The position numbers and the translations under genes were made by a program. From an uncultured delta proteobacterium (GTDB lineage: Bacteria > Myxococcota_A > Polyangia > Polyangiales > Polyangiaceae), in contig CAVQUB010000032.1 in NCBI GenBank assembly GCA_963716725.1, forward strand, positions 1 through 64,000: DNA of 64,000 nt, read 5' to 3'. Positions 18,124 to 52,099 of the stretch are shown here, in pieces; position 1 is the stretch's first letter; each line of letters starts with the position of its first letter. The notes beneath the pieces were generated by a model that was given only the letters and a program-made list of their open reading frames with translations, was not told the DNA's origin and made no database searches.

Positions 18124-18136
18124 CGTTCATTGAGAA

Positions 18137-33975: not shown

Positions 33976-33980
33976 AGATC

Positions 33981-35006: not shown

Positions 35007-35125
35007 GACTCGGGGTCATACCCCGGGGGGCGCTCGGTCGGAACCCCGTGGCGATCGCCAGGCCTCGCCGCGGCGACCGCCGCGCCGCCGCGCACGCCTG
35101 CCGGACAAACCTCGGGTTCTGGCCC

Positions 35126-35141
35126 TGGCACGAAGGCTGCT
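35126..35141 (+). promoter_or_regulatory. Putative sigma54 (-24/-12) promoter of comM-recA-ssb
   Basis: TGGCACGAAGGCTGCT, with GG and GC separated by exactly 10 nt. Confidence 0.65.
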
Positions 35142-35152
35142 GAAGGGCTGGC

Positions 35153-36736: not shown

Positions 36737-36752
36737 GCGACACGAATAGGAG

Positions 36753-37787
36753 ATGAACATGAACGACAAGAACAAGAACCGAGACCACGTCGTGCGCGAG
36801 GTGGTCGATCAAATCGAGAAGGCTCACGGCAAGGGCGCCATCATGCGCTTGGATAGCGAGGCCGGCACCTGTCCGGTCCCCGTCATTCCCAGCGGCGCGC
36901 TGGCCATCGACCAGGCGCTGGGCGTCGGCGGGTACCCCCGCGGCCGCATCGTCGAGGTCTTCGGACCCGAGTCGAGCGGCAAGACGACGCTCTCGCTGCA
37001 CGCCATCGCCGAGGTGCAGAAGTTGGGCGGCGTGGCGGCCTTCATCGACGCCGAGCACGCCTTCGACATGCGCTACGCCAAGGCCATCGGCATCGACCTC
37101 GGCAAGCTCTTGGTGTCACAGCCCGACTCCGGGGAGCAAGCGCTGGACATCGCGGAGGCCCTCACGCGCTCGGGTGCCGTCGACCTGGTGGTGATCGACT
37201 CGGTGGCGGCCCTGACGCCCCGCGCGGAAATCCAAGGGGATATGGGCGACGCGCACATGGGTCTGCAGGCCCGTCTGATGAGCCAGGCGCTGCGCAAACT
37301 CACGGCCATCACCCACAAATCCGGCACCACTTTGCTCTTCATCAACCAGCTCAGGCAGAAGATCGGCGTCGTCTTTGGCAACCCCGAGACGACGCCGGGC
37401 GGCACGGCCCTGAAATTCTATTCGAGCGTGCGCCTCGACGTGCGCCGCATCGGCAAGGTCGAGGCGGGGGACGCCGTAGTTGGCAACCGCACTCGCGTGC
37501 GCGTGGTCAAGAACAAGGTCGCGCCGCCCTTCGCCGAGGCGGAGTTCGACGTGCGCTGGGGCATCGGCATCGACACGGCGACGGATCTGCTCGACAGCGC
37601 CTTGCGTGTGGGCGCCCTCGAGCGGAATGGCTCGCACATCGTGCTCGACGGCAAGAGCATCGGGCAAGGGCGCGAGAAGGCGCGCGAAGCGTTGCTGGCA
37701 AACCCGGAGCTGCGTGGCGCCCTCGAACTCGCCACGCGCGGGCGCTCGCCGGCGCTGGCAGCGCGCATCCAGAAACGGGCGGCATGA
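36753..37787 (+). CDS. recA: Recombinase RecA
   Basis: [58 protein letters not shown]. Confidence 0.97.
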
Positions 37788-37835
37788 GCCGACCCGCGGT
37801 CAGAATAGAAGAAAGAAAGCGAAAGGAATGAAGTC

Positions 37836-38252
37836 ATGAGCGATGGAATCAATCAGGTCATTTTGATGGGCAACCTCGGCGCGGAACCCGAGCTGAAGAA
37901 CCTGCCGTCGGGGGCGAACTTGCTGCGCTTCCGGATGGCGACGGACGAGAGCTTCTTGGACAAGAACAAGGAGCGGCAGACCCGCACCGAGTGGCACGAC
38001 GTCGTGCTCTGGGGAAACCGCGCGGAGCCGCTGTCGAGGTTCTTGTCGAAGGGCTCCCGCGTGCTGGTCGAGGGCACGCTCCGAACGTCCAGCTACGAGA
38101 AAGAGGGCGTGAAGCGCAAGCACACGGAGATCACGGCGCGGGACCTGCACCTGATCGGCACGCGACGTCCGTCGAGCGATCCCAGCGAGGGCAGCTGGCT
38201 CGCCGACACCGAGCCGGTGGCTCAGGCGCTCGACAGCGCGGTCGGGTACTGA
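37836..38252 (+). CDS. ssb: Single-stranded DNA-binding protein lacking the acidic -DIPF tail
   Basis: NQVILMGNLG, RTEWH, KGSRVLVEG; ends ...ALDSAVGY at 138 aa. Confidence 0.92.
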   Translation: MSDGINQVILMGNLGAEPELKNLPSGANLLRFRMATDESFLDKNKERQTRTEWHDVVLWGNRAEPLSRFLSKGSRVLVEGTLRTSSYEKEGVKRKHTEITARDLHLIGTRRPSSDPSEGSWLADTEPVAQALDSAVGY

Positions 38253-38292
38253 AGGCACTCGCCGCTGGGCGAGCCCGCGCCTGCCTCGTCCA

Positions 38293-38339
38293 CCCCCTCG
38301 CGTCCGCCCGCGGTCGCTCCGCGCGCGAACGCGAGGGGG
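38293..38339 (+). terminator. Inverted repeat downstream of ssb
   Basis: CCCCCTCGCGT (38293-38303) / ACGCGAGGGGG (38329-38339); no U-tract. Confidence 0.45.
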
Positions 38340-38388
38340 AACTTGGCGACGCGCCCGTCTGCCACGATCTCGGCTAGAGTGCCCGGCG

Positions 38389-38862
38389 ATGAGCACCGGC
38401 GAAGGTCCGAAGGCCCAGCAACTCGAGCTCTACGACCAGGGCTTCACGCAGGCCGTACCCCACAACCGGGCGCTCGGGCTCCGCTTCATCGACTTCGCTG
38501 ACGGGGAGGCCACCATGCTCTTGCCCTTCGCCGAGCACTTGGTCGGAAATCCCGAGACCGGCGTCTTGCACGGAGGCGCGATCACTTCGCTGCTCGACGC
38601 GACCTGCGGCGCTGCCGTCTTCATGAAGCTCCAATCGCCGGAGCCGATCGCTACCCTCGACTTGCGCATCGACTACCTGAAGCGCGGCGAGCCCCGCCGA
38701 GACGTGCGCTGCAAGGCCCAGTGTTACAAAGTCACGCGGCACGTCGCCTTCGTGCGAGGCACCGCCTACCACGACGACGAGAGTGATCCCATCGCCGCGG
38801 CTGCGGGCAGCTTCATCATCCAGGGCCGCGGCCCCGCCATTGTCGGCAGGAGCACGCCGTGA
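38389..38862 (+). CDS. PaaI-family thioesterase
   Basis: GVLHGGAITSLLDATCG, ATLDLRIDYL. Confidence 0.9.
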   Translation: MSTGEGPKAQQLELYDQGFTQAVPHNRALGLRFIDFADGEATMLLPFAEHLVGNPETGVLHGGAITSLLDATCGAAVFMKLQSPEPIATLDLRIDYLKRGEPRRDVRCKAQCYKVTRHVAFVRGTAYHDDESDPIAAAAGSFIIQGRGPAIVGRSTP

Positions 38863-39338
38863 GCGAGCTCGTGCGACGAATCGCCGAAGCCAAGGCCACG
38901 GGCGACTACCGCGCGCTGCTCGATCTCATTCCTTACGCGAACTGGCTCGGTATCGACGCCGCGCTCATCGACGGTGAGCTGGTGGGCAAGCTGCGCTTCG
39001 CTCCTGAGCTGATCGGTAATCCGGCGTTGCCCGCGCTCCACGGTGGCACCATCGGGGCGCTGATCGAGTCCACCGCCATCTTTCGGCTGTTCTGGGACGC
39101 GGAGACGGTGGTGATCCCCAAGACCATCAACCTCACCGTGGCGTACCTGCGCTCGGGCCGCCCGGTCGACACTTATGCGTTGGCGCGCATGACCAAACAC
39201 GGCCGGCGCGTCGCGAGCGCTTGGGTGGAGGTGTGGCAGGAAGACCGCCAGCGCCTGATCGCGACCGGCACAGTGAACCTGCTGATCGAGCCGCTCCGGA
39301 CGGAAACGCCCGAGGCGTCGCCCCCTGCTGACCGCTGA
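38859..39338 (+). CDS. PaaI-family thioesterase (second of a coupled pair)
   Basis: GNPALPALHGGTIGALIES, PKTINLTVAYLR; GTGA overlap. Confidence 0.9.
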   Translation: MSELVRRIAEAKATGDYRALLDLIPYANWLGIDAALIDGELVGKLRFAPELIGNPALPALHGGTIGALIESTAIFRLFWDAETVVIPKTINLTVAYLRSGRPVDTYALARMTKHGRRVASAWVEVWQEDRQRLIATGTVNLLIEPLRTETPEASPPADR

Positions 39339-39347
39339 TCGCCCGAG

Positions 39348-40832
39348 TCAGCACAGCCGACCGCGGGCGCGCGGCAGGAGCCCGTTCACGGTGTCTTGCA
39401 CGACCCGATCCGCGGCCTCTTCACCACTGACAGCGGCGAGTTCGGTACCGACCCCGCGTCCGCCCGCGCCGCAGCCCGCGGCGTACAGACCGCGGACCGG
39501 CGTGTGCACCGGGGGCCGGCGGTTCCCGACCTGGTCCGGCGTTTGACCCGTGGTCACTGCGGCTCCGGATGCCTTCCCGGTCCAGTTTTCCACGGCCTGT
39601 GTGGTGAACGTGTCGACCCACATGAGTTCGTCGTCGAGGCCTGGGATCAGCGCACGCAGAGTACTGAGCAGATTCTCGGTCCAGCGCTTGGGTGCGTCTT
39701 CGAGCGCGATGCCCGTCGTCGGAGCGACGGCGCAAGCCGTGATGAGCTGGGCTGATCCAGGCGCGAGCGTGGGATCGAAGTTGGTCGGCACAGGCGCATA
39801 GATGGGCGTGATCGGCGCCAGGCGACCCTGGCGCACGTGCTCGTACATCGCGTCCAGATCGTGGAGTCCGACGTCCGACAGCGAAAGGCCCGGGGCGTGG
39901 GCGCCCACCAGCGCGCCCGCTTTCACCAGCGGGCGACGCAGCGCGACCTTGGCCTGGACCGCCACCATCGAGCCGCTGAGCCCGCGCACGCGCTCGACGT
40001 AGTCTGGTGGAAACGCGCCAGCGCCCACCAGTCCGACCAGATCCGCCAGACTACTCGTCGAGATCACGGCCGGGGCCTCGTAGCTGCTGCCGTCGCTGCA
40101 CACCACCGAGTGCACTGAGCCGAGGCGAACCTCGATGCCGGTCACGCGCTTTCGTGTCAGCACTTCGGCGCCGTGGGCGCGGGCGGCAGTCAAGAACGAC
40201 GAGGGCACCGCAAACGCGCCCCCCTTCGGATACGACAGGCCGTGCTCACGCACCATGCGCTTGAAGCACCAGATGCCTTCGCCCGCGCTCACCTGGTCCA
40301 GCGGCAAGATGAAATAAAGGCCGAGCAAGAAGCCGAAGAGCCCGACCAGGCGCGGGTTCTCGGTGTAGCGCGTGACGAAGTCCCACATCGTCACCCGGTC
40401 CACCTCGGGCAAGCGCGCCTCGTCGAAGCGGGTGATGTCGTGCAGGAAGCGCGCAGCGTCGCGCACGTCCCGCGGCGACAGCTCCAGCTGCCGGATGGTG
40501 GACGCTACGAAGGCGGGCAGTCGCCACTTGTCGCGGGGCACGTCGATGGCGCCACCGAAGCCGACGACCCGGGCGAGATCGCGGGTCTGCACGAACTCGA
40601 TGGTCGGGCCGCCCACGCGTCGCGCCAAACGCGCCAGAGGTCCGCGGGCGCCGCGCGAGAACATGTGCGTGCCGATGTCGACGCGGAATCCGCGCTTTTC
40701 GTAGTAGGAGCACACTCCGCCGGTGCGGTTGTTCTTCTCGAGCAAGAGCGTGCGGAACCCCTCCCGCGCGAGAACGGCGGCCGCAACGCTGCCGCCAATC
40801 CCGGACCCGACCACGATGGCGTCGTAGCTCAC
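39348..40832 (-). CDS. FAD-dependent oxidoreductase, phytoene desaturase family
   Basis: YDAIVVGSGIGG, LLEKN..GG, DIGTH, YPKGG, TPVRGLYAAG. Confidence 0.85.
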   Translation of the reverse strand: MSYDAIVVGSGIGGSVAAAVLAREGFRTLLLEKNNRTGGVCSYYEKRGFRVDIGTHMFSRGARGPLARLARRVGGPTIEFVQTRDLARVVGFGGAIDVPRDKWRLPAFVASTIRQLELSPRDVRDAARFLHDITRFDEARLPEVDRVTMWDFVTRYTENPRLVGLFGFLLGLYFILPLDQVSAGEGIWCFKRMVREHGLSYPKGGAFAVPSSFLTAARAHGAEVLTRKRVTGIEVRLGSVHSVVCSDGSSYEAPAVISTSSLADLVGLVGAGAFPPDYVERVRGLSGSMVAVQAKVALRRPLVKAGALVGAHAPGLSLSDVGLHDLDAMYEHVRQGRLAPITPIYAPVPTNFDPTLAPGSAQLITACAVAPTTGIALEDAPKRWTENLLSTLRALIPGLDDELMWVDTFTTQAVENWTGKASGAAVTTGQTPDQVGNRRPPVHTPVRGLYAAGCGAGGRGVGTELAAVSGEEAADRVVQDTVNGLLPRARGRLC

Positions 40833-41160
40833 CTTCAGGCGAGCGTGCGCCGCTCGAAGCGCGGGAGCAAGCGATCGAGCTGGAGCGAGCTGCTCCTGAT
40901 GTCGGTGCGCACCGGATGCTGCCGCACGTGCGCCGGTGGTGTGCACCGCGAACCCGCGCCGCGAGCTTCGACCCGATCCGGCGCCAGCAGTCCTCCGCGG
41001 CGACCGCGGGCACCGCCCGGGTGCCCACATTCTCGCCGGCCCGCTGAAAATCCGGTGAAATCGTCTGGGACCCCTTGCCGAGCCGAGCCCCAAACGCTAA
41101 CCCCGTGGCGTTCCGGCTGGATTTGCACTCCGGCGGAGCACTCCCGTCTCGCAGCCAACC

Positions 41161-42402
41161 ATGAGCGGCATTGCCCAAAAGCTTCTCCGCGCGCTCTTGC
41201 CTATCTTGGTGCTCGGCGTCGGGGTCGCCGTGCTCGCGGCGTTCATCGCGACACGACCGAAGCCCATCAAGAAACCCCGGGACGAGCGCGGCGCGCTGGT
41301 GGAGGTGGTGAGCGTGCAGCCGGTGCGGCAGCGGCTCCGTGTTTCCGAGTTCGGAAGTGTGATTCCAGCGGAGCAGGTGGTCGTGCAGCCGGAGGTTTCT
41401 GGTCGCGTCGTCTGGCAGCACGACGAGCTGGTGCCCGGCGGTAGGTTCAAGAAGGGCGAGACGCTGCTCCGCCTCGACGGCCGGGACTACCGCCTCGCGG
41501 AGCGGCAGGCTGGGGCGACCGTCGATCGCGCGGAGCTCGAGCTCAAAGTCGAAAAGGCGCGGGGCGAAGTGGCCAAGGCCGAGTGGGATGTGATCGATCG
41601 GGGCAAGCGTGCCAGCGACGAGGGACGCGCGCTGGGGCTGCGCGAGCCGCAGCTGCAGGCTGCCCGAGCCGGGCTCGACGCGGCGAGGGGCACACGTGCA
41701 CAAGCCAAGCTCGCGAGCTCCAAGACCGTGCTCCGGGCCCCCTTCAACGGATTCGTCAAGATTGAAGCCGTGGACGTGGGCCAGCTCGTGACGCCGCAGA
41801 TGCCGTTGGCGACGCTGGTCGGAAGCGATCGCTTCTGGGTGCAGGTCTCCGTTCCGGTGGATCGACTCACTGCGGTCGACGTTCCGGGCATGAACGCCGA
41901 CGAAGGCAAGGGCGCCGTCGCGGTCATCGCCCAAGACGTCGGCGGACAACGCATTGAGCGAACGGGACGAGTCCTGCGGCTCTTGGGTGATCTGGATCCG
42001 GTGGGCCGCATGGCGCGCCTGCTCGTGGAGATCGACGACCCGCTGGGCCTTGCGGCGCCGCCGAAGCCTGGCTCCAAGCAGACCCCCGCACGACCCGGGT
42101 TGCCGCTGCTCCTGGGCGCCTTCGTCGAAGTCGCCATCGAGGCCCGGGAGCTGGGTGAGGTCATCGAGCTCCCGAGGTTGGCGCTCCGCGACGGAAGCGG
42201 CGTCTACGTCTACGGGCCCGACAGCCGCCTCGTCGTCCGCGACGTCAAGATCGCGTGGCGCACCGAGAAGACCGTCCTGATCCGCGAGGGCGTGACGGCC
42301 GGCGAAGAGGTGATCGTCAGCCGCCTGCCGAGCGCGGTTCCAGGCATGCTGCTGCGCAAGCCGGCGGCGCCCGACAAGCCCGCTCAGCTGGGACAGCGAT
42401 GA
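41161..42402 (+). CDS. RND efflux periplasmic adaptor (MFP)
   Basis: N-terminal TM; VVVQPEVSGRV; coiled coil; LRAPFNG; LLLGAFVEV. Confidence 0.92.
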   Translation: MSGIAQKLLRALLPILVLGVGVAVLAAFIATRPKPIKKPRDERGALVEVVSVQPVRQRLRVSEFGSVIPAEQVVVQPEVSGRVVWQHDELVPGGRFKKGETLLRLDGRDYRLAERQAGATVDRAELELKVEKARGEVAKAEWDVIDRGKRASDEGRALGLREPQLQAARAGLDAARGTRAQAKLASSKTVLRAPFNGFVKIEAVDVGQLVTPQMPLATLVGSDRFWVQVSVPVDRLTAVDVPGMNADEGKGAVAVIAQDVGGQRIERTGRVLRLLGDLDPVGRMARLLVEIDDPLGLAAPPKPGSKQTPARPGLPLLLGAFVEVAIEARELGEVIELPRLALRDGSGVYVYGPDSRLVVRDVKIAWRTEKTVLIREGVTAGEEVIVSRLPSAVPGMLLRKPAAPDKPAQLGQR

Positions 42403-45400
42403 GCGCTGGGCACGAGCCGCCCGTCGAGCCGGGACCGTCGTCGTACGGACCGGAGTCGGCGCGGCGACGCGATGCGATCGCGACCAAGAAGGATGGACCC
42501 CTCGCCTGGATGGCGAAGAACCCGGTGGCGTCCAACCTGCTGATGCTGCTCTTGATCGTCGGCGGTCTGCTGACGGTGCCGCGGGTCAGACAAGAGGTCT
42601 TTCCGGAGTTCGAGCTCGATCTCGTGTTGATCAACGTGCCCTATCCGGGGGCGAGCCCGGCCGAAGTGGAGCAGGGCGTGATCCTCGCCGTCGAGGAAGC
42701 GGTTCGTGGAGTCGACGGCGTCAAGGAAGTGCGCTCGACCGCCTCGGAGAGCGCCGGCACGGTCGTGATCGAGCTCTTGCTGGGGGCCAGCCCGGATCGA
42801 GCGCTGGCCGACGTGAAGAGCGCCGTCGATCGCATCACGAGCTTTCCGAAGGACGCCGAACGACCGGTGGTGAGCCTCGCGCAGTCGCGCCGACAGGTCA
42901 TCTCCGTGATGGTCAGCGGCGACGTGAGCGAGAAAGCCCTGCGCGACGTGGCAGAGCGCGTCCGGGACGATCTGCTCGATTCGCGCGCCGTGACCATCGT
43001 GCAGCTGGCTGGCGTGCGGCCGCTCGAGGTCAGCGTCGAGGTCCCGCGCGCCGAGTTGCGCCGCTACGGGCTCACCATCGATCAAGTGGCGCAGCGAGTC
43101 TCGGCGGCTTCAGTGGAGGTGCCGGGTGGCGGCGTGAAGACTCCGGGCGGAGAGATCCTGCTGCGGACCGCCGAGCGCCGCGATCGTGCCCAGGAGTTCG
43201 CGGACGTCGTCGTGTTGTCCCGACCCGACGGCAGCGAGGTGCGAATCGGCGACCTCGCACGGGTCGAAGACGGCTTTCGCGAGACCGACCAGGAGGCCTT
43301 CTTCAACGGCAAGCGCGCGGCCATGGTCAACGTGTACCGGGTCGGCGACGAGAAGCCGCTGGAGATCTCCGCGCTCGTCAAGCGCTACGTCGAAGATCAC
43401 CGGAGCGCGCTCCCTCCGGGCGTGGACTTGTCCATCTGGTCGGACAGCTCCGAGATCTATGCCGACCGCGTGGACCTACTCAGGCGGAACGCGAACTTCG
43501 GGTTGATCCTGGTGTTCGTGGCCTTGGCGTTGTTCTTGGAATTGCGCCTGGCGATCTGGGTCACCATGGGCATCCCGATTTCGGTAATCGGCTCGATGCT
43601 GCTGATGCCGGCGTGGGACGCGTCGATCAACATGATCTCGCTGTTTGCGTTCATCGTCACCCTCGGCATCGTCGTGGACGACGCCATCGTGGTGGGCGAG
43701 GCCATCCACACCAAGCGACAGCAGGGAATGAGCCCCTCTGAGGCCGCCATCGCAGGCGTGCGCGAGGTGGCGATGCCGGTGGTGTCCGCGGTGCTAACCA
43801 CGATCTTTGCCTTCGCCCCCATGCTCTTCGTGCCGGGACCCGCCGGGAAGTTCTTCCGGCTGATCCCCATCGTGGTCATCGCGGTGCTGCTGATCTCTCT
43901 CGTCGAGTCGCTGCTGGTCCTGCCCGCCCACCTCGCTCACCGTGGCTTCGGCATCTTGGTGGTGACCGCTGCCATCGCCGCGGCGCTGATCCTCGGCATG
44001 CCCCACGGGCTGAGCTGGGCCATCGTGGTGGGCCTGGCCAGTCTCGCCATCGGCGGCGTCGTGCTCTTGGCCGCCCAGCGCCTGGCCTCTGGTCGAGCCT
44101 TTCGTTTTATCGAGCACCAGCAGCAGCGCTTCAGTCGCCTGGTCGAGTGGATGATCGGTCACACCTACGTGCCGGTGGTCCGCCGAGCACTTCAGCGTCG
44201 CTACCTCACCGCCTGCATCGGCGCCGCCATCCTTCTGGGGTCCATCGGGCTGGTGGCCGGTGGTCGCCTCAATTTCACCTTCATGCCCAAGGTCGACAGC
44301 GATGTGGTCGTGGCGGGTCTCGAGATGCCATTCGGGACTTCGGTGTCGGACACGCGGGGGGTGGGCAAGCGCATCTTGACCGCGGCCGAGCAGGTCATGG
44401 CTGAGTTGGGAGGAGGCGCGGTGGTATCCCGGGGTATTTTCTCGCAGGTCGGCGACTCGGGATCCATGGCCGGTGGGCCGAGCGCCGCGGTGAAGGCTGC
44501 GGGCGGCAGTCACTTGGCGGAGGTTGCGGTCTTCCTCGTTCCGCTGGGCGAGAGGAAGTTCTCGTCCACGGAGTTTGCGCGGCGCTGGCGCGAGAAGATC
44601 GGCGACGTCGCGGGGGCGCGCACTCTCAAATTCGGCTTCAGCACCGGACCGAGTGCGGGCGCCGCGGTGGACGTGGCCTTGGCCCACCGCGACATTCGCG
44701 TGCTCGAAGCGGCATCCGCGCAGCTCTCGGGAAAGCTCGCCGAGTACTCGGGCGTCTACGACATCGACAACGGGTTCGCGTCCGGAAAAGAACAGCTCGA
44801 TCTGCGACTCAAGCCCAGCGCTCGGGTGCTGGGCCTCACTGAAGCCGAGCTCGCGCGGCAAACTCGGGCGGCCTTCTACGGCAGCGAGGCGGTCCGTCAA
44901 CAGCGCGGCCGCGACGAGCTGAGGGTGTACGTACGTCTGCCCAAGAGCGAACGCTCCAGCGAGCACGACATCGAGCGCCTGATGATCCGCACGCCGCAGG
45001 GCGGAGAGATCCCGTTGACCGAGGCGGCCGAGATCGTCCGCGGACGTGCTTATACCACCGTCACACGGCAAGACGGGAGACGGGTGGTGCGAGTGACCGC
45101 CGAGGTCGACGACGCCGTGACCAACGCCAACAAGGTGGTCGGCGACATCCGCAAAGACGTGCTGCCTGGACTCCTCGCCGAATACGATGGCCTGACCTAC
45201 TCCCTCGAAGGCGAGCAGAAGGCGCAGGGCGAGACCATGGGCGCCCTGGGCAGAGGCTTTGGCTTCGCGCTCCTCGGGATCTTCGGGCTCTTGGCCATCA
45301 CCTTCCGCAGCTACATCCAACCGATCATCATCATGGGTGTCATTCCATTCGGCTTGGTCGGCGCCATGTGGGGTCACGTGGTGCTCGGCTACGACCTCTC

Positions 45401-45797
45401 ACTCATGAGCATGATGGGCGTCGTCGCGCTCTCGGGCGTGGTTGTGAACGATTCGCTGGTGATGATCGACGCGGTGAACACCTTCCGCAAAGAAGGCATG
45501 TCGCGGCGCGAGGCCTTGGTCGCGGCGGGGGCTCGCCGTTTTCGCCCCATCATCCTGACGTCGCTCACCACCTTCTTCGGCCTGATGCCCATGATCCTCG
45601 AGACCAGCATGCAGGCCCGCTTCCTGATCCCGATGGCCATCAGCCTGGGCATCGGCGTCATGTTTGCGACCTTCGTGACTTTGTTGATGGTGCCTGCGGC
45701 CTACGCCATCGTCGACGACGCCACGGCCGCCTGGGCACGCGTCAAGGCGTTCTTCGGGGGCGATCCCAGCGATGAGGCGCCGGTCGCGGGGGAGTGA
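42399..45797 (+). CDS. RND efflux permease
   Basis: NPVASNLLM, YPGASPAEVE, GIVVDDAIVVGE, GVVVNDS, RFRPIILTSLTT. Confidence 0.95.
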   Translation: MSAGHEPPVEPGPSSYGPESARRRDAIATKKDGPLAWMAKNPVASNLLMLLLIVGGLLTVPRVRQEVFPEFELDLVLINVPYPGASPAEVEQGVILAVEEAVRGVDGVKEVRSTASESAGTVVIELLLGASPDRALADVKSAVDRITSFPKDAERPVVSLAQSRRQVISVMVSGDVSEKALRDVAERVRDDLLDSRAVTIVQLAGVRPLEVSVEVPRAELRRYGLTIDQVAQRVSAASVEVPGGGVKTPGGEILLRTAERRDRAQEFADVVVLSRPDGSEVRIGDLARVEDGFRETDQEAFFNGKRAAMVNVYRVGDEKPLEISALVKRYVEDHRSALPPGVDLSIWSDSSEIYADRVDLLRRNANFGLILVFVALALFLELRLAIWVTMGIPISVIGSMLLMPAWDASINMISLFAFIVTLGIVVDDAIVVGEAIHTKRQQGMSPSEAAIAGVREVAMPVVSAVLTTIFAFAPMLFVPGPAGKFFRLIPIVVIAVLLISLVESLLVLPAHLAHRGFGILVVTAAIAAALILGMPHGLSWAIVVGLASLAIGGVVLLAAQRLASGRAFRFIEHQQQRFSRLVEWMIGHTYVPVVRRALQRRYLTACIGAAILLGSIGLVAGGRLNFTFMPKVDSDVVVAGLEMPFGTSVSDTRGVGKRILTAAEQVMAELGGGAVVSRGIFSQVGDSGSMAGGPSAAVKAAGGSHLAEVAVFLVPLGERKFSSTEFARRWREKIGDVAGARTLKFGFSTGPSAGAAVDVALAHRDIRVLEAASAQLSGKLAEYSGVYDIDNGFASGKEQLDLRLKPSARVLGLTEAELARQTRAAFYGSEAVRQQRGRDELRVYVRLPKSERSSEHDIERLMIRTPQGGEIPLTEAAEIVRGRAYTTVTRQDGRRVVRVTAEVDDAVTNANKVVGDIRKDVLPGLLAEYDGLTYSLEGEQKAQGETMGALGRGFGFALLGIFGLLAITFRSYIQPIIIMGVIPFGLVGAMWGHVVLGYDLSLMSMMGVVALSGVVVNDSLVMIDAVNTFRKEGMSRREALVAAGARRFRPIILTSLTTFFGLMPMILETSMQARFLIPMAISLGIGVMFATFVTLLMVPAAYAIVDDATAAWARVKAFFGGDPSDEAPVAGE

Positions 45798-45806
45798 GCT
45801 GGCTGG

Positions 45807-46577
45807 CTACCGGCAGACCGCCGCGAGGTCGATCTCGTAGTGCCCCGCGAAGTCGACGCAGTCGCCGGCGCTCACCCGCGCATCGAGTCGGATCTTGCCG
45901 TCCGCGGCCTGTTCGACGTGCAGCAGGCAGGACCCGCACCAGAGCCAGGGGCAGTCGCCGGGCGCACATTCGTGCATCATCGTCGCGACCGTGCACTCGG
46001 CTTCGTCGAGGCGGCTCACTACGCCGCTCGCATCGAAGGAGGCGCACACGGTCGCTCGTGCCGACGGCAGGTGCGCTTCGAGCAGCAGACCGCGTCCGGT
46101 CGTGGAGGAAGGCGCCGGCGTCGGGCCCTGGCACTGAGCGGATGCTTCACTGAGGCGGTACGTTCCCCCGAACATGTTGCACTCGCTCGAGCGAGGCCGG
46201 CCCTCGAGCATCCACGGCCCGCTCGCTGGCGTGTCCAGTCGCATCAGACAGCCGCCGCAGTTGCTCCAGGCGCCGCAGTCCTCATGGCAGAACGCGCCCG
46301 CTTCGACCTCTGAACAACGGGTGTCGTCGATGGCCGCGACCCGGCCGTCGCGGATCGAGACGCAGGTTTGGTCTCGCGCGGAGGTCGAGAACGCCGAGGT
46401 GAGGGTCCCGATCATGGCGAAGTTTTCGCGCGCCGGCGGGCCGTGCTGTGGCCCCGCAGGGGAGTGTTCGGGTCTTCGCGGCGAGTCTGACTCGTGCGGC
46501 TCGGGAGCTCCGCTGCACCCCGCGACCGCGATGAGAATGCCCAGCGCCACTCGTCGATGCCCAACCATAGCCTCCAC
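45807..46577 (-). CDS. Lipoprotein with two tandem 8-Cys domains
   Basis: IAVAG-C lipobox; two segments share Cys spacing, CGxCL and FxGxY; exact start codon uncertain. Confidence 0.7.
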   Translation of the reverse strand: MEAMVGHRRVALGILIAVAGCSGAPEPHESDSPRRPEHSPAGPQHGPPARENFAMIGTLTSAFSTSARDQTCVSIRDGRVAAIDDTRCSEVEAGAFCHEDCGAWSNCGGCLMRLDTPASGPWMLEGRPRSSECNMFGGTYRLSEASAQCQGPTPAPSSTTGRGLLLEAHLPSARATVCASFDASGVVSRLDEAECTVATMMHECAPGDCPWLWCGSCLLHVEQAADGKIRLDARVSAGDCVDFAGHYEIDLAAVCR

Positions 46578-46700
46578 CCCTTTCCATCGTCTCTCGACGA
46601 GGACCCTCTGGTGGACTCCTAGCGGACGGCGTCGGCGCGGTCGATGGTCATTTCTTCTGGAAAATGGTGCCTATGAGCCTCGGCTCGCACGCCGGCGCGA

Positions 46701-47651
46701 TCAGAACCGCCCGTACACGCCGACCTGTCTTGGTCCGACGTAGGGCGTCACACGGCGAGCGCCCGCCTTGCTTTCGACCTCGCTCTTGCCGCCGGTGAGC
46801 AGCAGCACCGCGCCCGCGCCAATGCCGACGGCGCCGACGATGAAGCCAACGGTCGCGATGCCGGCCTGCGTCTTGCCCTTGTCGTACAGGTCCTGCTGGT
46901 CATCGCCGCAGACGCCGTTCTTGCACTTCGAGTCGAGCTCGCTCTTCGTCGACTTGGCCTGCAGCCCCATGAACGTGCCGACTCCGACACCCACCACGCC
47001 GACGCCGAGCGCCACGTAGGCGAGGGTCTTGCTGCCACCGCTCTTTTTGGGCGAGTCCCCGGGTGCACCTTCGGAGTCCGCGGGCGCCGACGTCGGCAGC
47101 TCGGTCATCAGGACCGAGAGGTTCTTCCTGTCTTTCTCCGCCAGCTCGATGGTCTCAGTGTACGGCTTCATGCCTTCCGCTTCGGCGCGCACCTCGTGCT
47201 TGCCCGGGTTCGCGGGGACCGCTCCGCCGAGCGCGTCCTTGGACAACTCCTGGCCGTTGAGCTTCACGGTGCCGTCGAACCCCTGGGGCAGATCGAAGGT
47301 GATGGTTGGAGTTCGCTTCTCGAGACTAGCGAGTTGTTTCTTGGCCTTCGCGCGCTGGACGCCGCCGAGCTTCTTGACGGCGAGAGCCACCTTCAAGTGC
47401 TCCGAGGCCTCGACGAAGTGGCCCAGCTTCTCCTCGATGGCCGCCAGTCGGAGTCGCGTTCCCGGTTTGTCTTCGAGCTCGAGCGCCTTCTCGTAGGCGC
47501 TCTTGGCTTCGTCGAGGTTGCCCTGCTTCTCCGCCTTCTGGCCCTCCTTTTCGGCTTGCTTCGCAGTCGGAGCGCCCTTGGCGAGGGCGGCCCCGGGCAA
47601 GGTCACGATTGCGGAGGCCAACACACATGACAGGAGCAGCGGGCGCAGCAT
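46701..47651 (-). CDS. TPR plus PEGA-like domain exported protein (myxobacterial type)
   Basis: Signal peptide; TPR-like helices; NPGKHEVRAEAEG; Gly-rich hydrophobic hairpin; terminal VGVYGRF. Confidence 0.8.
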   Translation of the reverse strand: MLRPLLLSCVLASAIVTLPGAALAKGAPTAKQAEKEGQKAEKQGNLDEAKSAYEKALELEDKPGTRLRLAAIEEKLGHFVEASEHLKVALAVKKLGGVQRAKAKKQLASLEKRTPTITFDLPQGFDGTVKLNGQELSKDALGGAVPANPGKHEVRAEAEGMKPYTETIELAEKDRKNLSVLMTELPTSAPADSEGAPGDSPKKSGGSKTLAYVALGVGVVGVGVGTFMGLQAKSTKSELDSKCKNGVCGDDQQDLYDKGKTQAGIATVGFIVGAVGIGAGAVLLLTGGKSEVESKAGARRVTPYVGPRQVGVYGRF

Positions 47652-47818
47652 TGCCCGAGTTTCGCCGAATTCGCGCCCGCGGGGAACGGTCCTTGTCGTG
47701 TGTTCAGCCTGGGCAGACGTTCGCGCCGACGGATGCGCAGTGATTTTCTGTTCACTCCCGGGATCGGCTCTGGTACGGAGGATGCGCCGCTTCTCCGGGA
47801 AGCGAGGAGGAACACGCT

Positions 47819-50377
47819 GTGAGATCGAAGAAGCGCGGCTCTCGAGCTGCCGGCGCTGTGCGCACGCGCAGGCTGAACGCAATGTCGGTGGCAGGCAAGA
47901 AGCCCGTTGCGAAGCGGAAGCCCGTCGCAACGAAGAAGCCCGTGGCGAAGCGCAAGCCCGTCGCAACGAAGAGGCCCGTCGCGAAGCGGAAGCCCGTTGC
48001 AACGAAGAAGCCCGTCGCGAAGCGGAAGCCCGTCGCGAAGCGGAAGCCCGTCGCAACGAAGAGGCCCGTCGCGAAGCGGAAGCCCGTTGCAACGAAGAAG
48101 CCCGTCGCGAAGCGGAAGCCCGTTGCAACGAAGAAGCCCGTTGCAACGAAGAAGCCCGTCGCGAAGCGGAAGCCGGTTGCAACGAAGAAGCCCGTTGCGA
48201 AGCGGAAGCCCGTCGCAACGAAGAAGCCCGTTGCGAAGCGGAAGCCCGTCGCAACGAAGAAGCCCGTTGCAACGAAGAAGCCCGTCGCGAAGCGGAAGCC
48301 CGTCGCGAAGCGGAAGCCGGTTGCAACGAAGAAGCCCGTCGCGACGAAGAAGCCCGTTGCGACGAAGAAGCCCCTCGCGGGCCCTCCGGCTCGACCCGAG
48401 GCCGCGCCAGCTGTCGGCTATCCCGAGTCCGCCGCGAGCCAGGTACTCCAAGCCGCGGACTCGCACTCCGCAGCGCCGCTCGTGGGAGGAGGCGGCAAGC
48501 TCGCCGTGCGAGTGGGTCGGCTGCCGCCCCGCGGCGAGGCTGTCGGCGCGACCCCCCGGAACAGCGCGCGGCCGGCGATGGCCGCGCCCGCGAGCCGAGC
48601 GCCCGCGAGCCAAGCGCCCGCGAGCCAAGCGCCCGCGAGCCAAGCGCCCGCGAGCCAAGCGCCCGCGGTTACGCCGCCGCCGCCGCGTCCCGCGTTCGAC
48701 GACGCCTCCTGGCAGCGCGTCGAAGACGTCGCGCGCGAGCTCGACCTTTCAGAGCTCAGCGGCGATCAGCGCAAGGCCATTCGCGCCGCGCTCGAAGGCC
48801 GCGACGCGGTGGTCTCGATGCCATCGGGGCTCCCGCGTGCGGCGTGCTTCGTGATCCCGTCGCGGCTCCTCATGCAGCCGGTGCTGGTCGTGGGACCGCG
48901 CCCGGCGATCCTGCGAGAGTTGCACGACCGATTGAGCCAGCGCCGAGTTCCGGCCATTCGCTACGACTCGAGCCTCACTGATAGCGCGAATCGCCAGGCT
49001 CTGGACCGCATCGCTGCGGGTGGCCCCCTGGTGGTCTTGACGACCGCCACCGCGCTCATCCAAGACGAGGCACTCCGCGCGCTCTCGCGCTCCGGAGTTG
49101 CGTTGATCGCTGTCGACGACGCGCAGGTTGCGACCGCGGCCACGGACGAGTTCAACCCCGCGACCACCGACCTGAGCCGGGTGTTCGACCGCCTCGGTCG
49201 GCCCCCGGTCATGGCCTTGATGGGGGCTGCGGCGCCGGCGGCGCGGCACGAAGTCGTCGACGCGCTCGCGCTCCGGTCTCCCGTCCACGTCGAGGCGCCG
49301 CTGCTACGCAAGAACGTCGTGCTCGACGTGCTCGACCTGCGCGGGGAGGCTCGGCAGAGGGCGTTGGTGCAGTTGGTGATGTCCCTGCGCAGACCCGGGG
49401 TGATCTTTGCGCCGACGGCCCGGGAAGTGGACTCGATCTACGGATCCCTCACGGCTTTGCGCTTGCCGGTGCACCGCTACCACCCGCACATGCCGCCGGG
49501 CGACCGCGTCGGAGAGCAGCTCAACTTCGTGCTGCCCGGACGCCGCTCGATCATGGTGGCGACCAGCGCATTCGGTACGGCGTCTGGGCTGGTCGGAGTC
49601 GGGGAGGCAGCGCTTCTCGACAAGGCGCCACAAGATTTCGGCTTGTGCTTCGAGAAGCGAGATCTGCGATTTGTGCTGCATTGGTCCGCGCCGGCATCTC
49701 TCGAGCAGTACCTGCGCGAGATCAGCTTGGCAGGGCGCGACGGCGAAGAGAGCACCTGCGTGCTCTTCCACGATGGCAGCGATCGCGCGCGACACGAGGC
49801 GCTCCTGGCCCAGTCGCGGATCCCGTCGCGGCACCTGACCCACCTGGCCAAGGCGCTCGAGGTGGCGGCCATCGATGGGCGTCCGCGCACGCTCGAGTCG
49901 CTGGCCTTGTCGAGCGGGCTCAGTCGCAAGTTGACCGAGATCCTAGCGGCAGTCCTGGACGATGCCCGCCTGGTGAACGTGGATCAGGGGTGGCTGCGCG
50001 TCGTGGTCCCGGCGCCGGCGCTCGCGGCGGGGGCGCAGCGACTGGCGTCGCGCCTAGACCGGCTCCGCAGTCAGGACGGAAAGCGTCTCACGGCGATCAG
50101 CAACTACGTCGACACCGTGGGTTGCCGGGTCGCCGCACTGTCTCGCTATTTCGGCGACCTCGGTGCACCGGCCTGCGGACGCTGTGGGGGCTGCAAGGGC
50201 AGCTTGGTTCCCGGATTCGACGGCGATGCGGCCCTCGAAGGTGGGCACACGCGGCGGACGGCTGCGGAGGCTTTCAGTCTCGGCGGCGCCGAAGCGTTCG
50301 GCATGGGCGTTGCCGAGCCGTGCCAAGGGGCTCGCCCACTCACCGTGAAGATCGCCGACTTCCGGCGCGGACGCTGA
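47819..50377 (+). CDS. RecQ-like pseudo-helicase with N-terminal Lys/Arg-rich histone-like repeat region
   Basis: GAGGAGG SD 8 nt before the GTG; RecQ-like layout (QRKAIRAALEGRDAVVSMP, VATSAFG, RFVLHW, AGRDG, C...YFG...CGRCGGC) with degenerate Walker A and B. Confidence 0.85.
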   Translation: MRSKKRGSRAAGAVRTRRLNAMSVAGKKPVAKRKPVATKKPVAKRKPVATKRPVAKRKPVATKKPVAKRKPVAKRKPVATKRPVAKRKPVATKKPVAKRKPVATKKPVATKKPVAKRKPVATKKPVAKRKPVATKKPVAKRKPVATKKPVATKKPVAKRKPVAKRKPVATKKPVATKKPVATKKPLAGPPARPEAAPAVGYPESAASQVLQAADSHSAAPLVGGGGKLAVRVGRLPPRGEAVGATPRNSARPAMAAPASRAPASQAPASQAPASQAPASQAPAVTPPPPRPAFDDASWQRVEDVARELDLSELSGDQRKAIRAALEGRDAVVSMPSGLPRAACFVIPSRLLMQPVLVVGPRPAILRELHDRLSQRRVPAIRYDSSLTDSANRQALDRIAAGGPLVVLTTATALIQDEALRALSRSGVALIAVDDAQVATAATDEFNPATTDLSRVFDRLGRPPVMALMGAAAPAARHEVVDALALRSPVHVEAPLLRKNVVLDVLDLRGEARQRALVQLVMSLRRPGVIFAPTAREVDSIYGSLTALRLPVHRYHPHMPPGDRVGEQLNFVLPGRRSIMVATSAFGTASGLVGVGEAALLDKAPQDFGLCFEKRDLRFVLHWSAPASLEQYLREISLAGRDGEESTCVLFHDGSDRARHEALLAQSRIPSRHLTHLAKALEVAAIDGRPRTLESLALSSGLSRKLTEILAAVLDDARLVNVDQGWLRVVVPAPALAAGAQRLASRLDRLRSQDGKRLTAISNYVDTVGCRVAALSRYFGDLGAPACGRCGGCKGSLVPGFDGDAALEGGHTRRTAAEAFSLGGAEAFGMGVAEPCQGARPLTVKIADFRRGR
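47897..48382 (+). repeat. 18-bp coding tandem repeat, 26 units plus one degenerate, encoding [KR][KR]PVA[KT]
   Basis: Units such as AAGAAGCCCGTYGCGAAG and CGGAAGCCCGTYGCAACG read directly, with no spacers. Confidence 0.97.
48584..48667 (+). repeat. 15-bp coding tandem repeat, 5 units plus partial, encoding APAS[RQ]
   Basis: GCGCCCGCGAGCCRA repeated head to tail. Confidence 0.95.
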
Positions 50378-50383
50378 CTCCTC

Positions 50384-51232
50384 TCAGGGTTCGCCGTCGA
50401 TCAGCGAGCCGTAGCCTTCGCGGAACGTTGGGTACGCCAGGGCGTAGCCCGTGCGACGGAGTCGGCTGTTCGAACACCGCTTGTGTCCGCCTCCGCGACG
50501 AGGGCTCTCTCCGGATCCCTCCACCGCGCGAGGGAGCGCTGCGCCGAGGCGCTCTGCAATCCAGACCATCACGTCGCGACGCGGCGCCGGCTCGTCGTCG
50601 ACGCCAAGGTAGATCGACTCCGGCGCTGAGACTCCAATCAGGTGAGCCAGCGCTCCCGCGCAGTCGTCCCGATGAAAGCGGTTGACGTAGCGCACGTCGC
50701 CTTCGTTCCAGGTCGCCTGCCCGCTCCGCGCTCCGGCCACCAGGCTCGCGCGACCCGGGCCGTAGATCCCGCCCAATCGCAGAATCACTCCGTCCGGGCG
50801 GCGCGCGAGCAACAGCGCCTCGGCCTCGAGCAGGGTGGCTCCGGAAAAGTGGCTGGCCGTTGCCGGTGAGGTCTCATCGACCCACGAGCCGTCGGTCTGG
50901 GCGTAGACAGCGGTGCTCGACGTGAAGAGCACGCGATCCGCTCGATCGCCGAGCGCGTCCAGCACGCTCGTCAGCGCATCGATGTAGGTTCGGCGATACG
51001 CTTCGGGGCGGCTCTCGCCCGGGCCAGCGCAGAAGATCAGCGCATCGAACTTTCCGCCCAGTGCTCGCAGCGCCGAGCGGTCGAGGAGATCCGCCGCGAT
51101 GCCTCTGACGCCGCGCGGCAGCCCGCCGGGGGAGCGGCGCACTGCCGAGACTTCGACCCCACGCCCGGCACAAAGCTCGCCGAGCCGCGCGCCGACGTAT
51201 CCGGCGCCCGCGATCAGGATCCGCTGGGCCAG
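50384..51232 (-). CDS. NAD-dependent epimerase/SDR (YeeZ-like), probable CTG start
   Basis: The in-frame Rossmann motif RILIAGAGYVG lies upstream of the first GTG; FTSSTAVY, LRLGGIYGPGR, YPTFREG. Confidence 0.85.
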   Translation of the reverse strand: MAQRILIAGAGYVGARLGELCAGRGVEVSAVRRSPGGLPRGVRGIAADLLDRSALRALGGKFDALIFCAGPGESRPEAYRRTYIDALTSVLDALGDRADRVLFTSSTAVYAQTDGSWVDETSPATASHFSGATLLEAEALLLARRPDGVILRLGGIYGPGRASLVAGARSGQATWNEGDVRYVNRFHRDDCAGALAHLIGVSAPESIYLGVDDEPAPRRDVMVWIAERLGAALPRAVEGSGESPRRGGGHKRCSNSRLRRTGYALAYPTFREGYGSLIDGEP

Positions 51233-51295
51233 GGTGTCCGTCCTTTCGATACCTGTCCGCCGCCGCGTGCGGTGTATGCTCCGCAGTGCTCGAGC

Positions 51296-52099
51296 ATGCG
51301 CCTGCCCGTCTCACCCGAAGTCCAAGCACGCCTCGCCCGGCTCGAGTTGCCGTTCAACGCTGACGGCCTGGATCCGTATGGCATCGATCGTCGGCGCCTC
51401 GGCTTCATGTTCACGACCTTTGGGCTGTTCTACCAGCGATACTTCCGCTGTAGGGCCTTCGGTGTCCAGAACATCCCGAAGCAAGGCCGGGCCATGCTGG
51501 TCGGCAACCACTCCGGGGGCGTCGCCTTCGACGCCATGATGGTGATCGCGTCGTGCTTCTTCGAGCTCGAGCCGCCGCGCCTGGCCCAGGGCATGGTGGA
51601 GAAGTTCATCAATCGGCTGCCCTTCGCCTCGGAGTGGTCGAGCAAGACCGGTCAGTTCACTGGATTGCCCGAGCACGCCCTGCGCCTGTTGAATGAGGAC
51701 CGGCTGCTCATGGTCTTCCCCGAGGGCGCGCGCGGCACCGCCAAGCTGTTCGTCGAACGCTACAACCTGGTGCGTTTCGGGACGGGCTTCATGCGACTCG
51801 CGCTCGCCACCAAGACGCCCATCGTGCCCTTCGGATTTCTCGGGGGAGGCGAGGCGCTGCCGACAGTCGCGAATCTCGAGAAGATCGGGCGCCTGTTCGG
51901 GGCGCCGTACGTGCCCGTCACGCCCTATCTGCTGCCGATCCCGCTGCCCGTGCGGATGGAGGTCCACTACGGCCAGCCGATCATGCCGAGCGGTACCGGC
52001 GACGAGGACGACCAGGTGATCCTCGAGCAGGTGAACGCGGTAAAGGCCAGCATCCGCCACCTCATCGAACGCGGCCGGAAGAGCTACGAGGCAACATGA
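51296..52099 (+). CDS. Lysophospholipid/glycerol acyltransferase (PlsC family)
   Basis: VGNHSGGVAFD (HX4-5D-like), VFPEG, GFMRLA, PIVP. Confidence 0.9.
   Translation: MRLPVSPEVQARLARLELPFNADGLDPYGIDRRRLGFMFTTFGLFYQRYFRCRAFGVQNIPKQGRAMLVGNHSGGVAFDAMMVIASCFFELEPPRLAQGMVEKFINRLPFASEWSSKTGQFTGLPEHALRLLNEDRLLMVFPEGARGTAKLFVERYNLVRFGTGFMRLALATKTPIVPFGFLGGGEALPTVANLEKIGRLFGAPYVPVTPYLLPIPLPVRMEVHYGQPIMPSGTGDEDDQVILEQVNAVKASIRHLIERGRKSYEAT

Follow-up and report, generated by a model that had tools for sequence, protein, structure and literature searches.

The closest described counterparts of the protein reported here are the helicase RqlH of Mycobacterium smegmatis and E. coli RecQ. RqlH has a two-domain RecQ-like core with classical superfamily 2 (SF2) phosphohydrolase motifs and ATPase/helicase activity, a tetracysteine zinc module, and a C-terminal domain resembling ComF/phosphoribosyltransferases, and its clade is marked by a spacer of ~90 amino acids (aa) before the zinc module and by the absence of an HRDC domain (PMC3378886). 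We analyzed a 64,000-nucleotide (nt) stretch of DNA from an uncultured Polyangiaceae bacterium of the Myxococcota (contig CAVQUB010000032.1, positions 1 to 64,000; the whole stretch is referred to as the window), in which one gene encodes an 852-aa protein with the same two-domain core, spacer, four-cysteine zinc module, and lack of HRDC. Unlike RqlH, this window protein has degenerate motifs 0 to III and VI and ends in a short tail closing with PLT[AV]KLxDF instead of the ComF-like domain, and its N terminus bears a polycationic tail that does not figure in the available description of RqlH (PMC3378886). E. coli RecQ (1oyw/1oyy), its best match in both sequence and fold, has the two RecA-like domains in common with it, as well as motif V and a zinc site of four cysteines. 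In contrast to E. coli RecQ, the window protein has changes in the Walker A lysine, the DEAH box, the aromatic-rich loop, motif III, and half of motif VI, carries a 22-aa insert in motif V and the spacer before the zinc site, and has no HRDC domain. By fold and descent it belongs to the RecQ family, and it lacks the catalytic signatures of both the RecQ and the RqlH families. We hold with moderate confidence that the gene encodes an expressed, vertically inherited RqlH-type pseudo-helicase, most likely acting as an ATP-independent DNA-binding protein.

Roles exerted by RecQ-family proteins through DNA binding without unwinding have been described for RECQL4 (PMC6636780) and for helicase-dead Hrq1 (preprint PMC12918939). 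In those cases, inactivity was engineered into proteins whose native motifs are intact, whereas here the loss would be natural, clade-wide, and ancient. Outside its core, RECQL4 additionally carries a long N-terminal region. Eukaryotic machines include well-known examples of natural pseudo-helicases; in bacteria, to our knowledge, such proteins are rarely documented. We found no description of a naturally ATPase-dead bacterial RecQ-like protein, or of such an architecture, in the openly accessible literature, where the matches for myxobacterial RecQ helicases concern M. xanthus DdiA and ordinary RecQ. This agrees with an earlier reading of the window made from its letters without database searches (here called the original prediction), which did not recognize the architecture as characterized.

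The gene is one uninterrupted open reading frame (ORF) with a GTG start and no internal stop. The coding sequence, its ribosome-binding site, and the parts of the core are as follows.

47819..50377, forward strand: coding sequence (CDS), 852 aa, RecQ/RqlH-like putative pseudo-helicase with polycationic tail (ORF listing, profile and homology searches)
47805..47810, forward strand: Shine-Dalgarno sequence AGGAGG, 8 nt 5' of the GTG
48701..49303, forward strand: RecA-like domain 1, residues ~295-495, with degenerate motif 0 (LSGDQRKAI) and altered motifs I to III
48818-48841, forward strand: motif I, MPSGLPRA (E. coli RecQ, MPTGGGKS), with the Walker A Lys changed to Arg and the flanking residues changed G to P and S to A
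49115-49126, forward strand: motif II, DDAQ (E. coli RecQ, DEAH), from the 1oyw alignment
49130-49159, forward strand: position of the lost aromatic-rich loop, TAATDEFNP versus E. coli SQWGHDFRP, from the 1oyw alignment
49220-49231, forward strand: motif III, MGAA (LMGAAA versus E. coli LTATAD), without T-A-T-A
49304..49774, forward strand: RecA-like domain 2, residues ~496-652, with conserved motif V (VATSAF), an insert, and a variant motif VI
49577-49636, forward strand: clade-specific insert of ~22 aa in motif V, extra relative to E. coli RecQ
49715-49744, forward strand: variant motif VI, REISLAGRDG (E. coli QETGRAGRDG), with Q changed to R and the first Arg to Leu, and the second Arg and DG retained
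49775..50113, forward strand: RqlH-type spacer, residues ~653-765, comprising helices, a helix-turn-helix with beta-hairpin (winged-helix-like), and a long helix
50114..50206, forward strand: zinc module with four cysteines, C769, C786, C789, and C792, aligned with the RecQ cysteines
50207..50374, forward strand: C-terminal tail modeled at low confidence, 56 residues past the zinc site, with two conserved pieces
50252-50281, forward strand: RRxxAxxFS, conserved C-tail piece
50333-50374, forward strand: terminal RPLTVKIADFRRGR, family consensus PLT[AV]KLxDF

The fold of the core is that of RecQ. A phmmer search of PDB sequences returned 38 distinct RecQ-family chains, with E. coli RecQ (1oyw) the best at an E value of 1.5e-25. 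An AlphaFold2 (AF2) model of residues 222-852, built from a 92-row alignment, had a mean predicted local distance difference test score (pLDDT) of 89.4 and a predicted template modeling score (pTM) of 0.85 and was confident over residues ~281-796. Its top Foldseek matches in the PDB were RecQ cores (E values of 2.9e-23 to 1e-19), the best being the catalytic cores 4tmu, 1oyw, and 4q48 and RECQL5 5lb8 (E values of 3e-23 to 1e-21, 1oyw at 6.6e-23), with template modeling (TM) scores normalized on the target of 0.68-0.70 for 4tmu/1oyw and 0.82 for 5lb8. All three methods place two RecA-like SF2 domains of RecQ type in the protein, and the Cys cluster (C769...YFGD...C786-G-R-C789-G-G-C792) passes the Pfam RecQ_Zn_bind cut-off (26.1 bits versus 25), so the earlier claim that the RecQ layout and its zinc-binding cluster are kept is borne out. 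The curated cut-offs for complete enzymes are missed, widely for NCBIfam recQ (TIGR01389, 178.2 versus 640.2 bits) and recQ_fam (TIGR00614, 140.8 versus 219.8), while Pfam DEAD (25.6 versus 26) and Helicase_C (16.7 versus 23.5) fall just under theirs.

The original prediction called the protein a RecQ homolog, which is right as to fold and needs refining as to type. Alignment to E. coli RecQ breaks at 658/752 and resumes at the Cys cluster, leaving a spacer of ~90-95 aa that is folded in the AF2 model at a pLDDT above 95. The PADLOC profile for PsyrT, which we take to be an RqlH-type helicase, spans residues 606-794, that is, the spacer plus the zinc module. Neither HRDC (PF00570) nor ComF/Pribosyltran gave a Pfam match in the window protein at an E value of ≤1. 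Given the spacer that precedes the zinc site and the lack of HRDC, the core reads as RqlH-type and not as classical RecQ, a call that rests on the spacer/zinc layout and the PsyrT profile, with M. smegmatis RqlH compared by its description. In the alignment to 1oyw, the catalytic motifs are altered together within an intact frame, as predicted, and the altered states are shared by orthologs. The motif II and loop region reads DDAQVATAATDEFNP and contains neither DEAH nor xxWGHDFRP. These changes indicate that the window protein has probably lost ATPase activity.

The protein has relatives in other genomes. A word-indexed search across 5.8 billion proteins produced 122 matches, an exhaustive one across 1.84 billion cluster representatives produced 552 at an E value of ≤1e-30, and the ESM Atlas returned generic RecQ-family clusters only; motif tables were compiled over 121 and 133 proteins. 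The closest relatives (P0003-P0009) share 59-76% identity in the core and, where named, come from Myxococcales/Polyangiaceae metagenome-assembled genomes (MAGs). We inferred a maximum-likelihood tree from 55 near-full-length rows picked by hand, with fragments and two intended rows absent; in it, the family forms a 40-row clade with a Shimodaira-Hasegawa-like approximate likelihood-ratio (SH-aLRT) support of 100 and a stem length of 0.49, nested among RecQ-like helicases with canonical motifs (LPTGFGKSACY, DEAHCISEWGHDFRP, LTATAT, and QEAGRAGRDG). Its hallmarks are a motif VI of the form [YLC]xRE[ILV]x[LA]xGRDG, the motif V insert, an N-terminal VR[VIL]GRLPPR, and a C-terminal PLT[AV]KLxDF. 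Eight of the 40 rows retain GK[ST] in motif I, eight others, including the window protein, form a subclade in which Lys is replaced by Arg (the K-to-R subclade, support 97), and 24 rows without a recognizable P-loop make up another group (support 92). This distribution requires at least two changes of P-loop state.

A scan of GTDB species genomes with two peptide patterns yielded 17 loci (L001-L017) out of 59 pattern matches, a count that is a lower bound given the two patterns used. Sixteen of the 17 carry titles of Myxococcota, Myxococcales, Polyangiaceae, Sorangium, or uncultured (delta)proteobacterium MAGs, and L008 is titled Pseudomonadota; the best locus matches the window protein at 74% identity, so that the genome from which the window comes is not represented in this set. 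Motif I reads GK[ST] in 8/17 loci, has Arg in 2/17 (L001 and L002), and is unrecognizable in 7/17. At the Walker Lys position, Arg occupies all 8 rows of the K-to-R subclade as well as L001. When P0019, one of the active sisters, and P0099, a classical RecQ, served as tblastn queries, the gene itself was the only match, and no second RecQ-like gene was found in the window or in the 17 loci. The clade is well supported as a distinct family, one that, judging from these searches, is seen only in MAGs of Myxococcota/Polyangiaceae type. Orthologs in other genomes repeat the frame, the kind of tail, and the motif states of the window gene, and its features are not due to chance.

We assessed constraint as the mean pairwise identity of motif columns compared with that of the remaining core columns.

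Active sisters (16 rows): background, 0.53; motif I, 0.87; motif II plus loop, 0.95; motif III, 1.00; motif V, 0.98; motif VI, 0.99; zinc site, 0.97
K-to-R subclade (8 rows): background, 0.61; motif I, 0.51; motif II plus loop, 0.53; motif III, 0.56; motif V, 0.92; motif VI, 0.82; zinc site, 0.85
Clade members with GK[ST] (7 rows): background, 0.52; motif I, 0.61; motif II plus loop, 0.53; motif III, 0.37; motif V, 0.81; motif VI, 0.85; zinc site, 0.84

Within the clade, motifs I to III are thus no better conserved than background, while motifs V and VI and the zinc site stay high, which indicates that constraint on the hydrolysis motifs has been lifted clade-wide. The motif 0 Gln is also missing in 2 of the 8 K-to-R rows (P0005, LSIDLKKAI; P0017, LCSERKRAI). 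In contrast, selection still acts on the fold, on RecA-like domain 2, on the motif VI variant, and on the zinc site. The 18 genes compared (the window gene and the 17 locus genes) contain no internal stop. Nei-Gojobori ratios of nonsynonymous to synonymous substitution (dN/dS) for the core within the K-to-R subclade were 0.167 (window-L001), 0.230 (window-L002), and 0.299 (L001-L002), values that are rough, with dS at 1.0-1.2 and near saturation, yet clearly below 1. The prediction that the gene is not in neutral decay therefore held; the accompanying check, whether dead motifs and basic tail are conserved, showed conservation of the tail (see below) and relaxation of motifs I to III, which affects the whole clade and not only the window protein. 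From these patterns we infer that motor function was probably lost at or near the base of the clade and that motifs I to III then decayed stepwise, the window protein being one outcome. The altered motifs V and VI are older than the Walker A change, since clade members that read GK[ST] already have them.

The N-terminal part of the protein consists of a repeat tail and a linker.

47897..48382, forward strand: polycationic repeat tail, residues 27-188, with 26 exact [KR][KR]PVA[KT] units and a terminal KKPLAG
Following the tail, forward strand: Ala/Pro-rich linker, residues 189-299, holding an APASQ repeat and VRVGRLPPRGE
48506..48538, forward strand: short linear motif VRVGRLPPRGE, residues 230-240, clade-conserved, at a pLDDT below 50 and disordered in the model
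48584..48667, forward strand: APASQ repeat, 5.6 copies in 15-nt units with 98% matches, in the linker between tail and core

The predicted 26 repeats behind a strong Shine-Dalgarno sequence were counted exactly. Residues 26-190 (165 residues) contain 52 Lys, 14 Arg, and no Asp or Glu, for a net charge of +66 and a pI of 12, and are 32% K, 18% P, 16% A, and 16% V. The underlying DNA is a tandem array (47897-48379) of a 36-nt consensus repeated 13.4 times (18 nt, ~27 times), matching at 87% and showing higher-order periodicity at 54, 90, and 126 nt. Lysine is favored in tails and arginine elsewhere: the window protein has K55/R28 in its tail versus K9/R61 in its core, and cores across all 17 loci have 3-12 Lys and 48-67 Arg. 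A basic N-terminal tail in frame with the core is present in 12 of the 14 loci with a complete 5' end (K+R of 43-114, D+E of ≤8), the exceptions being L015, whose tail is mixed, and L016, whose tail is short; the edge-truncated loci L001 and L008 start within Lys-rich repeats. The repeat unit varies by species (AKKKVV, RKAKATIARKAKAAPV, VAKKTTPR, AAPKRATKKTTRR, AKPKPAKTTRKSAKRAR, AAKATKAAR, KTAAKKTAA, and others). As units differ between species and composition does not, the arrays have been remade repeatedly with composition retained. The linker motif, in the form VR[VIL]GR[LMW]xxR, is found in the window and 11 of the 17 loci.

Translation through the tail, and not from a start downstream of it, is favored by the conserved N terminus and by a conserved element 5' of the annotated start (see below), in line with the original prediction. 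The residues that precede the repeats (MRSKKRGSR...) are common to the window protein, P0003, and P0004. The G+C content at third codon positions (GC3) in the CDS frame is 0.86 over the repeat array versus 0.83 over the helicase core. Four other ORFs over the array (46701..48326 and 47603..48658 on the reverse strand; 47503..48981 and 47907..48854 on the forward strand) were rejected as by-products of the repeats, because of the GC3 of 0.86 in the CDS frame and the conservation of that same frame in orthologs. Two profile matches were likewise set aside: Pfam Cementoin, the only Pfam match on the tail (7.5e-20), as an artifact of hexapeptide repeat composition, and NCBIfam Rv3852_fam on the Ala/Pro linker (23.9 bits versus a cut-off of 100) as low complexity. 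Database gene calls often begin after the tail despite an open basic frame upstream (P0013 compared with L004, and P0011 with L007).

A RecQ-like core with a polycation tail is not by itself unique to dead members. Since both GK[ST]-reading clade members and active sisters carry tails, the tail is older than the loss of the P-loop.

Several further observations concern these tails. P0005 and P0009 are likewise among the gene calls that start past a basic tail, and the upstream frame of L007 consists of APPRRPRRS repeats, suggesting a frame error in an assembled repeat array. Charged low-complexity tails also occur on active-motif sister helicases (P0023, P0026-29, P0046, P0125, P0151, and P0157); some are strongly acidic N-terminal tails (e.g., K+R of 41 and D+E of 89), P0151 has a basic N-terminal tail, and P0046 and P0157 have basic C-terminal tails with repeats of the KKA(A/T)TKK type.

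Lysine-rich additions act on DNA binding in several described proteins. PAKKA repeats raise DNA binding by M. smegmatis Ku (PMC3553676), a lysine-repeat tail raises that of Streptomyces TopA, an active enzyme (PMC5714199), and an H1-like domain confers DNA binding on Anaeromyxobacter CarD (PMC2919716). Like these, the window tail is a low-complexity Lys/Ala/Pro(/Val/Thr) sequence of very high charge joined to a folded DNA-related domain; unlike them, it is N-terminal, longer, more regular (26 hexapeptides), and attached to an apparently dead motor domain. Lysine-rich tails are also found on the histone H1 C terminus, chlamydial Hc2, and Pseudomonas AlgP. The likeness of the window tail to those of Ku, TopA, CarD/H1, Hc2, and AlgP is compositional only and does not establish homology.

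By analogy with Ku, TopA, and CarD, the 165-residue lysine tail, with its net charge of +66, would bind nucleic acid strongly, electrostatically, and independently of sequence, and it may bridge or compact DNA. Structure-selective binding to single strands, junctions, or other non-B DNA would come from the conserved parts of the core, namely RecA-like domain 2 (with motif V and its insert and the motif VI variant), the zinc module, and the winged-helix-like spacer, and the two conserved short terminal motifs may dock partners. DNA as the ligand, and with it any nucleoid or recombination role, is our provisional reading of these features, and the nucleoid structuring, condensate formation, or action with or against an active RecQ that the original prediction envisaged would be candidate roles. 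Several points weigh against an ATP-independent DNA-binding protein, in addition to the roughness of the dN/dS values. The 8 of 17 GTDB loci that keep GK[ST] in motif I mean that some members may bind or hydrolyze nucleotide, and a single mechanism for the clade is not required. The Arg that is invariant at the Walker Lys position of the K-to-R subclade could support residual phosphate or nucleotide binding, and the second Arg of motif VI (GRDG) is retained. For a polycation, RNA and polyphosphate are no poorer ligands than DNA. Both terminal motifs have low confidence in the AF2 model, so docking is hypothetical. Finally, the relatives are all from MAGs or metagenomes, so that assembly errors in repeat arrays are possible, L007 being a likely frame problem.

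A broader proposal, which we offer tentatively and consider rather unlikely as a whole, is that in an entire Polyangiaceae-type lineage of large-genome myxobacteria, a RecQ/RqlH motor evolved into a chromatin protein that works without ATP and joins a linker-histone-like polycation to a helicase-fold reader of DNA structure. The motif VI variant and motif V insert would take over from ATP in holding the two RecA-like domains in a fixed state, non-B or single-stranded DNA (such as G-rich structures in this genome of ~68% G+C) would be marked or compacted by the protein, and a dedicated regulator would bind the upstream element.

That element and a possible promoter hexamer lie between the divergent upstream gene and the GTG.

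47739..47755, forward strand: conserved upstream element AGTGATTTTCTGTTCAC, consensus CA[CG]TG-N-[TA]TTT[CT][CT]TGT[TC].., probably an operator or -35 region
47774..47779, forward strand: TACGGA, putative -10-like hexamer from the alignment, 18 nt past the element

We aligned ~110 nt 5' of the start from the window and 13 loci (L002-L007 and L009-L015), leaving aside L016, which has no obvious copy, and L001, L008, and L017, in which upstream sequence is absent. The block has ten invariant columns in all 14 aligned regions and lies 46-80 nt before the start codon, and a G-x-TG-x-TACGG sequence follows ~17-18 nt after it in most of the orthologous upstream regions. With up to 3 mismatches allowed, the 17-mer pattern has 2 matches in the window versus 0.08 expected; across the 17 loci, it lies 5' of the RecQ-like gene in 10 and occurs elsewhere once (with 3 mismatches). 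The same pattern was not found in the recA and comM regions of the window and loci. The block is probably a gene-specific promoter with an overlapping operator for some regulator. A scan of 47600-50700 for sigma-70 consensus promoters and terminators detected no promoter and a single terminator-like site (2.0 expected), which lies within the CDS, and an Rfam search of 46500-51500 at an E value of ≤1 matched nothing. LexA/SOS control was considered and rejected: the M. xanthus LexA box (CTRHAMRYBYGTTCAGS) has 12 matches in the window at ≤3 mismatches versus 20.3 expected, and an apparent match at 47692-47708 is attributed to chance.

The neighborhood of the gene is syntenic across genomes, with rearrangements. 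One gene lies immediately upstream.

46701..47639, reverse strand: divergent gene for a TPR protein, secreted or membrane (TPR_2 match; signal peptide and C-terminal hydrophobic segment)

A homolog of this gene is adjacent and divergent in L002 and lies ~2.6-4 kb upstream of the RecQ-like gene in L006, L012, L013, and L014. The pairing persists through rearrangements in some relatives, and any functional link between the two genes is hypothetical. A block of genes for a CHAD-domain protein, isocitrate/isopropylmalate dehydrogenase, ComM (Mg-chelatase-like), and RecA occupies 33004-37784 in the window, and in the window, L002, L005, and L012-L014, it lies 1.7-10 kb from the RecQ-like gene despite rearrangements. 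In 10 of 17 loci, the CHAD gene is the next one downstream of the RecQ-like gene; in the window, 14 kb separate the two. Epimerase, acyltransferase, and epimerase genes follow the RecQ-like gene in L001, and a GntR gene is nearby in 7 loci. The shared synteny indicates that the loci hold orthologs and not scattered paralogs. By Pfam, the neighbors in the window encode the TPR protein, epimerases, an acyltransferase, and components of resistance-nodulation-division (RND) efflux; between recA (36750-37784) and the TPR gene lies a block of ~9 kb, which L002 lacks at this place.

That block (37800-46600) holds genes for two 4HBT thioesterases, a flavin amine oxidase, an HlyD/AcrB-type RND efflux system, and a lipoprotein, and looks inserted or rearranged. 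Within it, 45807-46577 (reverse strand) encodes a predicted Cys-rich lipoprotein of 256 aa with two similar halves (...C.EDCG.WS.CGGCL... twice) and no Pfam or PADLOC match. Farther away, a gene at 16349-18126 (reverse strand) for an MbnB/TglH/ChrH-type enzyme that modifies ribosomally synthesized and posttranslationally modified peptides (RiPPs; Pfam E value, 3e-106) stands beside one for a DUF2063 protein, which may form a small RiPP pair, and 7001-9165 (reverse strand) carries genes for a DisA_N-type diadenylate cyclase and a YbbR-domain protein (a CdaA/CdaR-like pair) beside folP, indicating cyclic di-AMP signaling.

This context bears on two alternatives. In the first, the ligand is not chromosomal DNA, and the protein is a factor associated with RNA, ribosomes, or polyphosphate whose lysine tail binds RNA or polyphosphate. 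The polycation is unselective for DNA, and the CHAD gene so often found directly downstream points the same way, CHAD proteins being associated with polyphosphate granules. Lysine-rich disordered regions are also described as driving RNA condensation (PMC6606616). However, the core descends from DNA helicases and retains the RecQ zinc module and winged-helix-like spacer, the CHAD gene is no longer adjacent in the window, L001, and L002, its adjacency elsewhere may reflect synteny that close relatives inherited, and comM and recA belong to the same conserved block, leaving this alternative distinctly unlikely. In the second, which we judge no more probable, a dead protein modulates recombination by occupying RecQ/RqlH substrates or by binding RecA or ComM partners, competing with active helicases or guiding them. 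The persistence of comM-recA within 1.7-10 kb of the gene in the six rearranged contexts named above is compatible with this, as is the capacity of helicase-dead RecQ-family alleles to act through DNA binding (PMC12918939, PMC6636780). Yet the arrangement is synteny among related genomes and is non-operonic, with intervening genes and strand changes, no SOS-type signal was seen in the window (12 LexA-box matches versus 20 expected), and neither the recA nor the comM regions have a copy of the upstream element.

A still working, if unorthodox, ATPase/helicase would use Arg for the Walker Lys and DDAQ as its Walker B motif, with the tail as a processivity anchor as in TopA. The invariance of that Arg in the K-to-R subclade, the retention in most members of an Asp aligned with the catalytic Glu, the intact GRDG of motif VI, the GK[ST] kept by other clade members, and the precedent of a tail on an active topoisomerase (PMC5714199) are all in its favor. 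Against them stand simultaneous changes elsewhere: the P-loop G-to-P and S/T-to-A substitutions, the loss of motif III and the aromatic-rich loop, Q to R and R to L in motif VI, the motif 0 Gln missing from 2 of 8 subclade rows, and conservation of motifs 0 to III at background level versus 0.87-1.00 in active sisters. We give this alternative little probability. An anti-phage component, either DpdF-like or a toxin of PsyrT/RqlH type, is contradicted by context and very improbable. PADLOC profiles for DpdF (best 4.1e-63) and PsyrT (2.4e-38) match the window protein, but they do so through a shared fold, because those profiles represent RecQ-like helicases; NCBIfam DpdF scores 55.6 versus a cut-off of 550, none of 5 tested neighbor proteins has a PADLOC match or is a Dpd, PsyrTA, or RqlHI partner, and the neighborhood is housekeeping in character and syntenic across genomes. 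Least credible of all is that the gene is a pseudogene undergoing decay or an ORF that a repeat array produced by accident, in spite of the sub-threshold Pfam DEAD and Helicase_C scores and the NCBIfam recQ score of 178 versus 640 bits, given the intact 852-codon frame with its strong Shine-Dalgarno sequence, the orthologs at 59-76% identity that are all intact, the dN/dS of 0.17-0.30, the confident AF2 fold, and the conserved upstream element.

The preferred account therefore remains that of an RqlH-type pseudo-helicase that probably binds DNA independently of ATP. The family is real, conserved, and currently misannotated: the database names "ATP-dependent DNA helicase RecQ" and "DEAD/DEAH box helicase" are probably wrong in function. 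Its members form a graded natural series, from GK[ST] through Arg to no P-loop, with a common fold, zinc site, and basic tail. Such a series makes it testable which parts of a RecQ core recognize DNA without a motor and what an H1-like tail adds to them.

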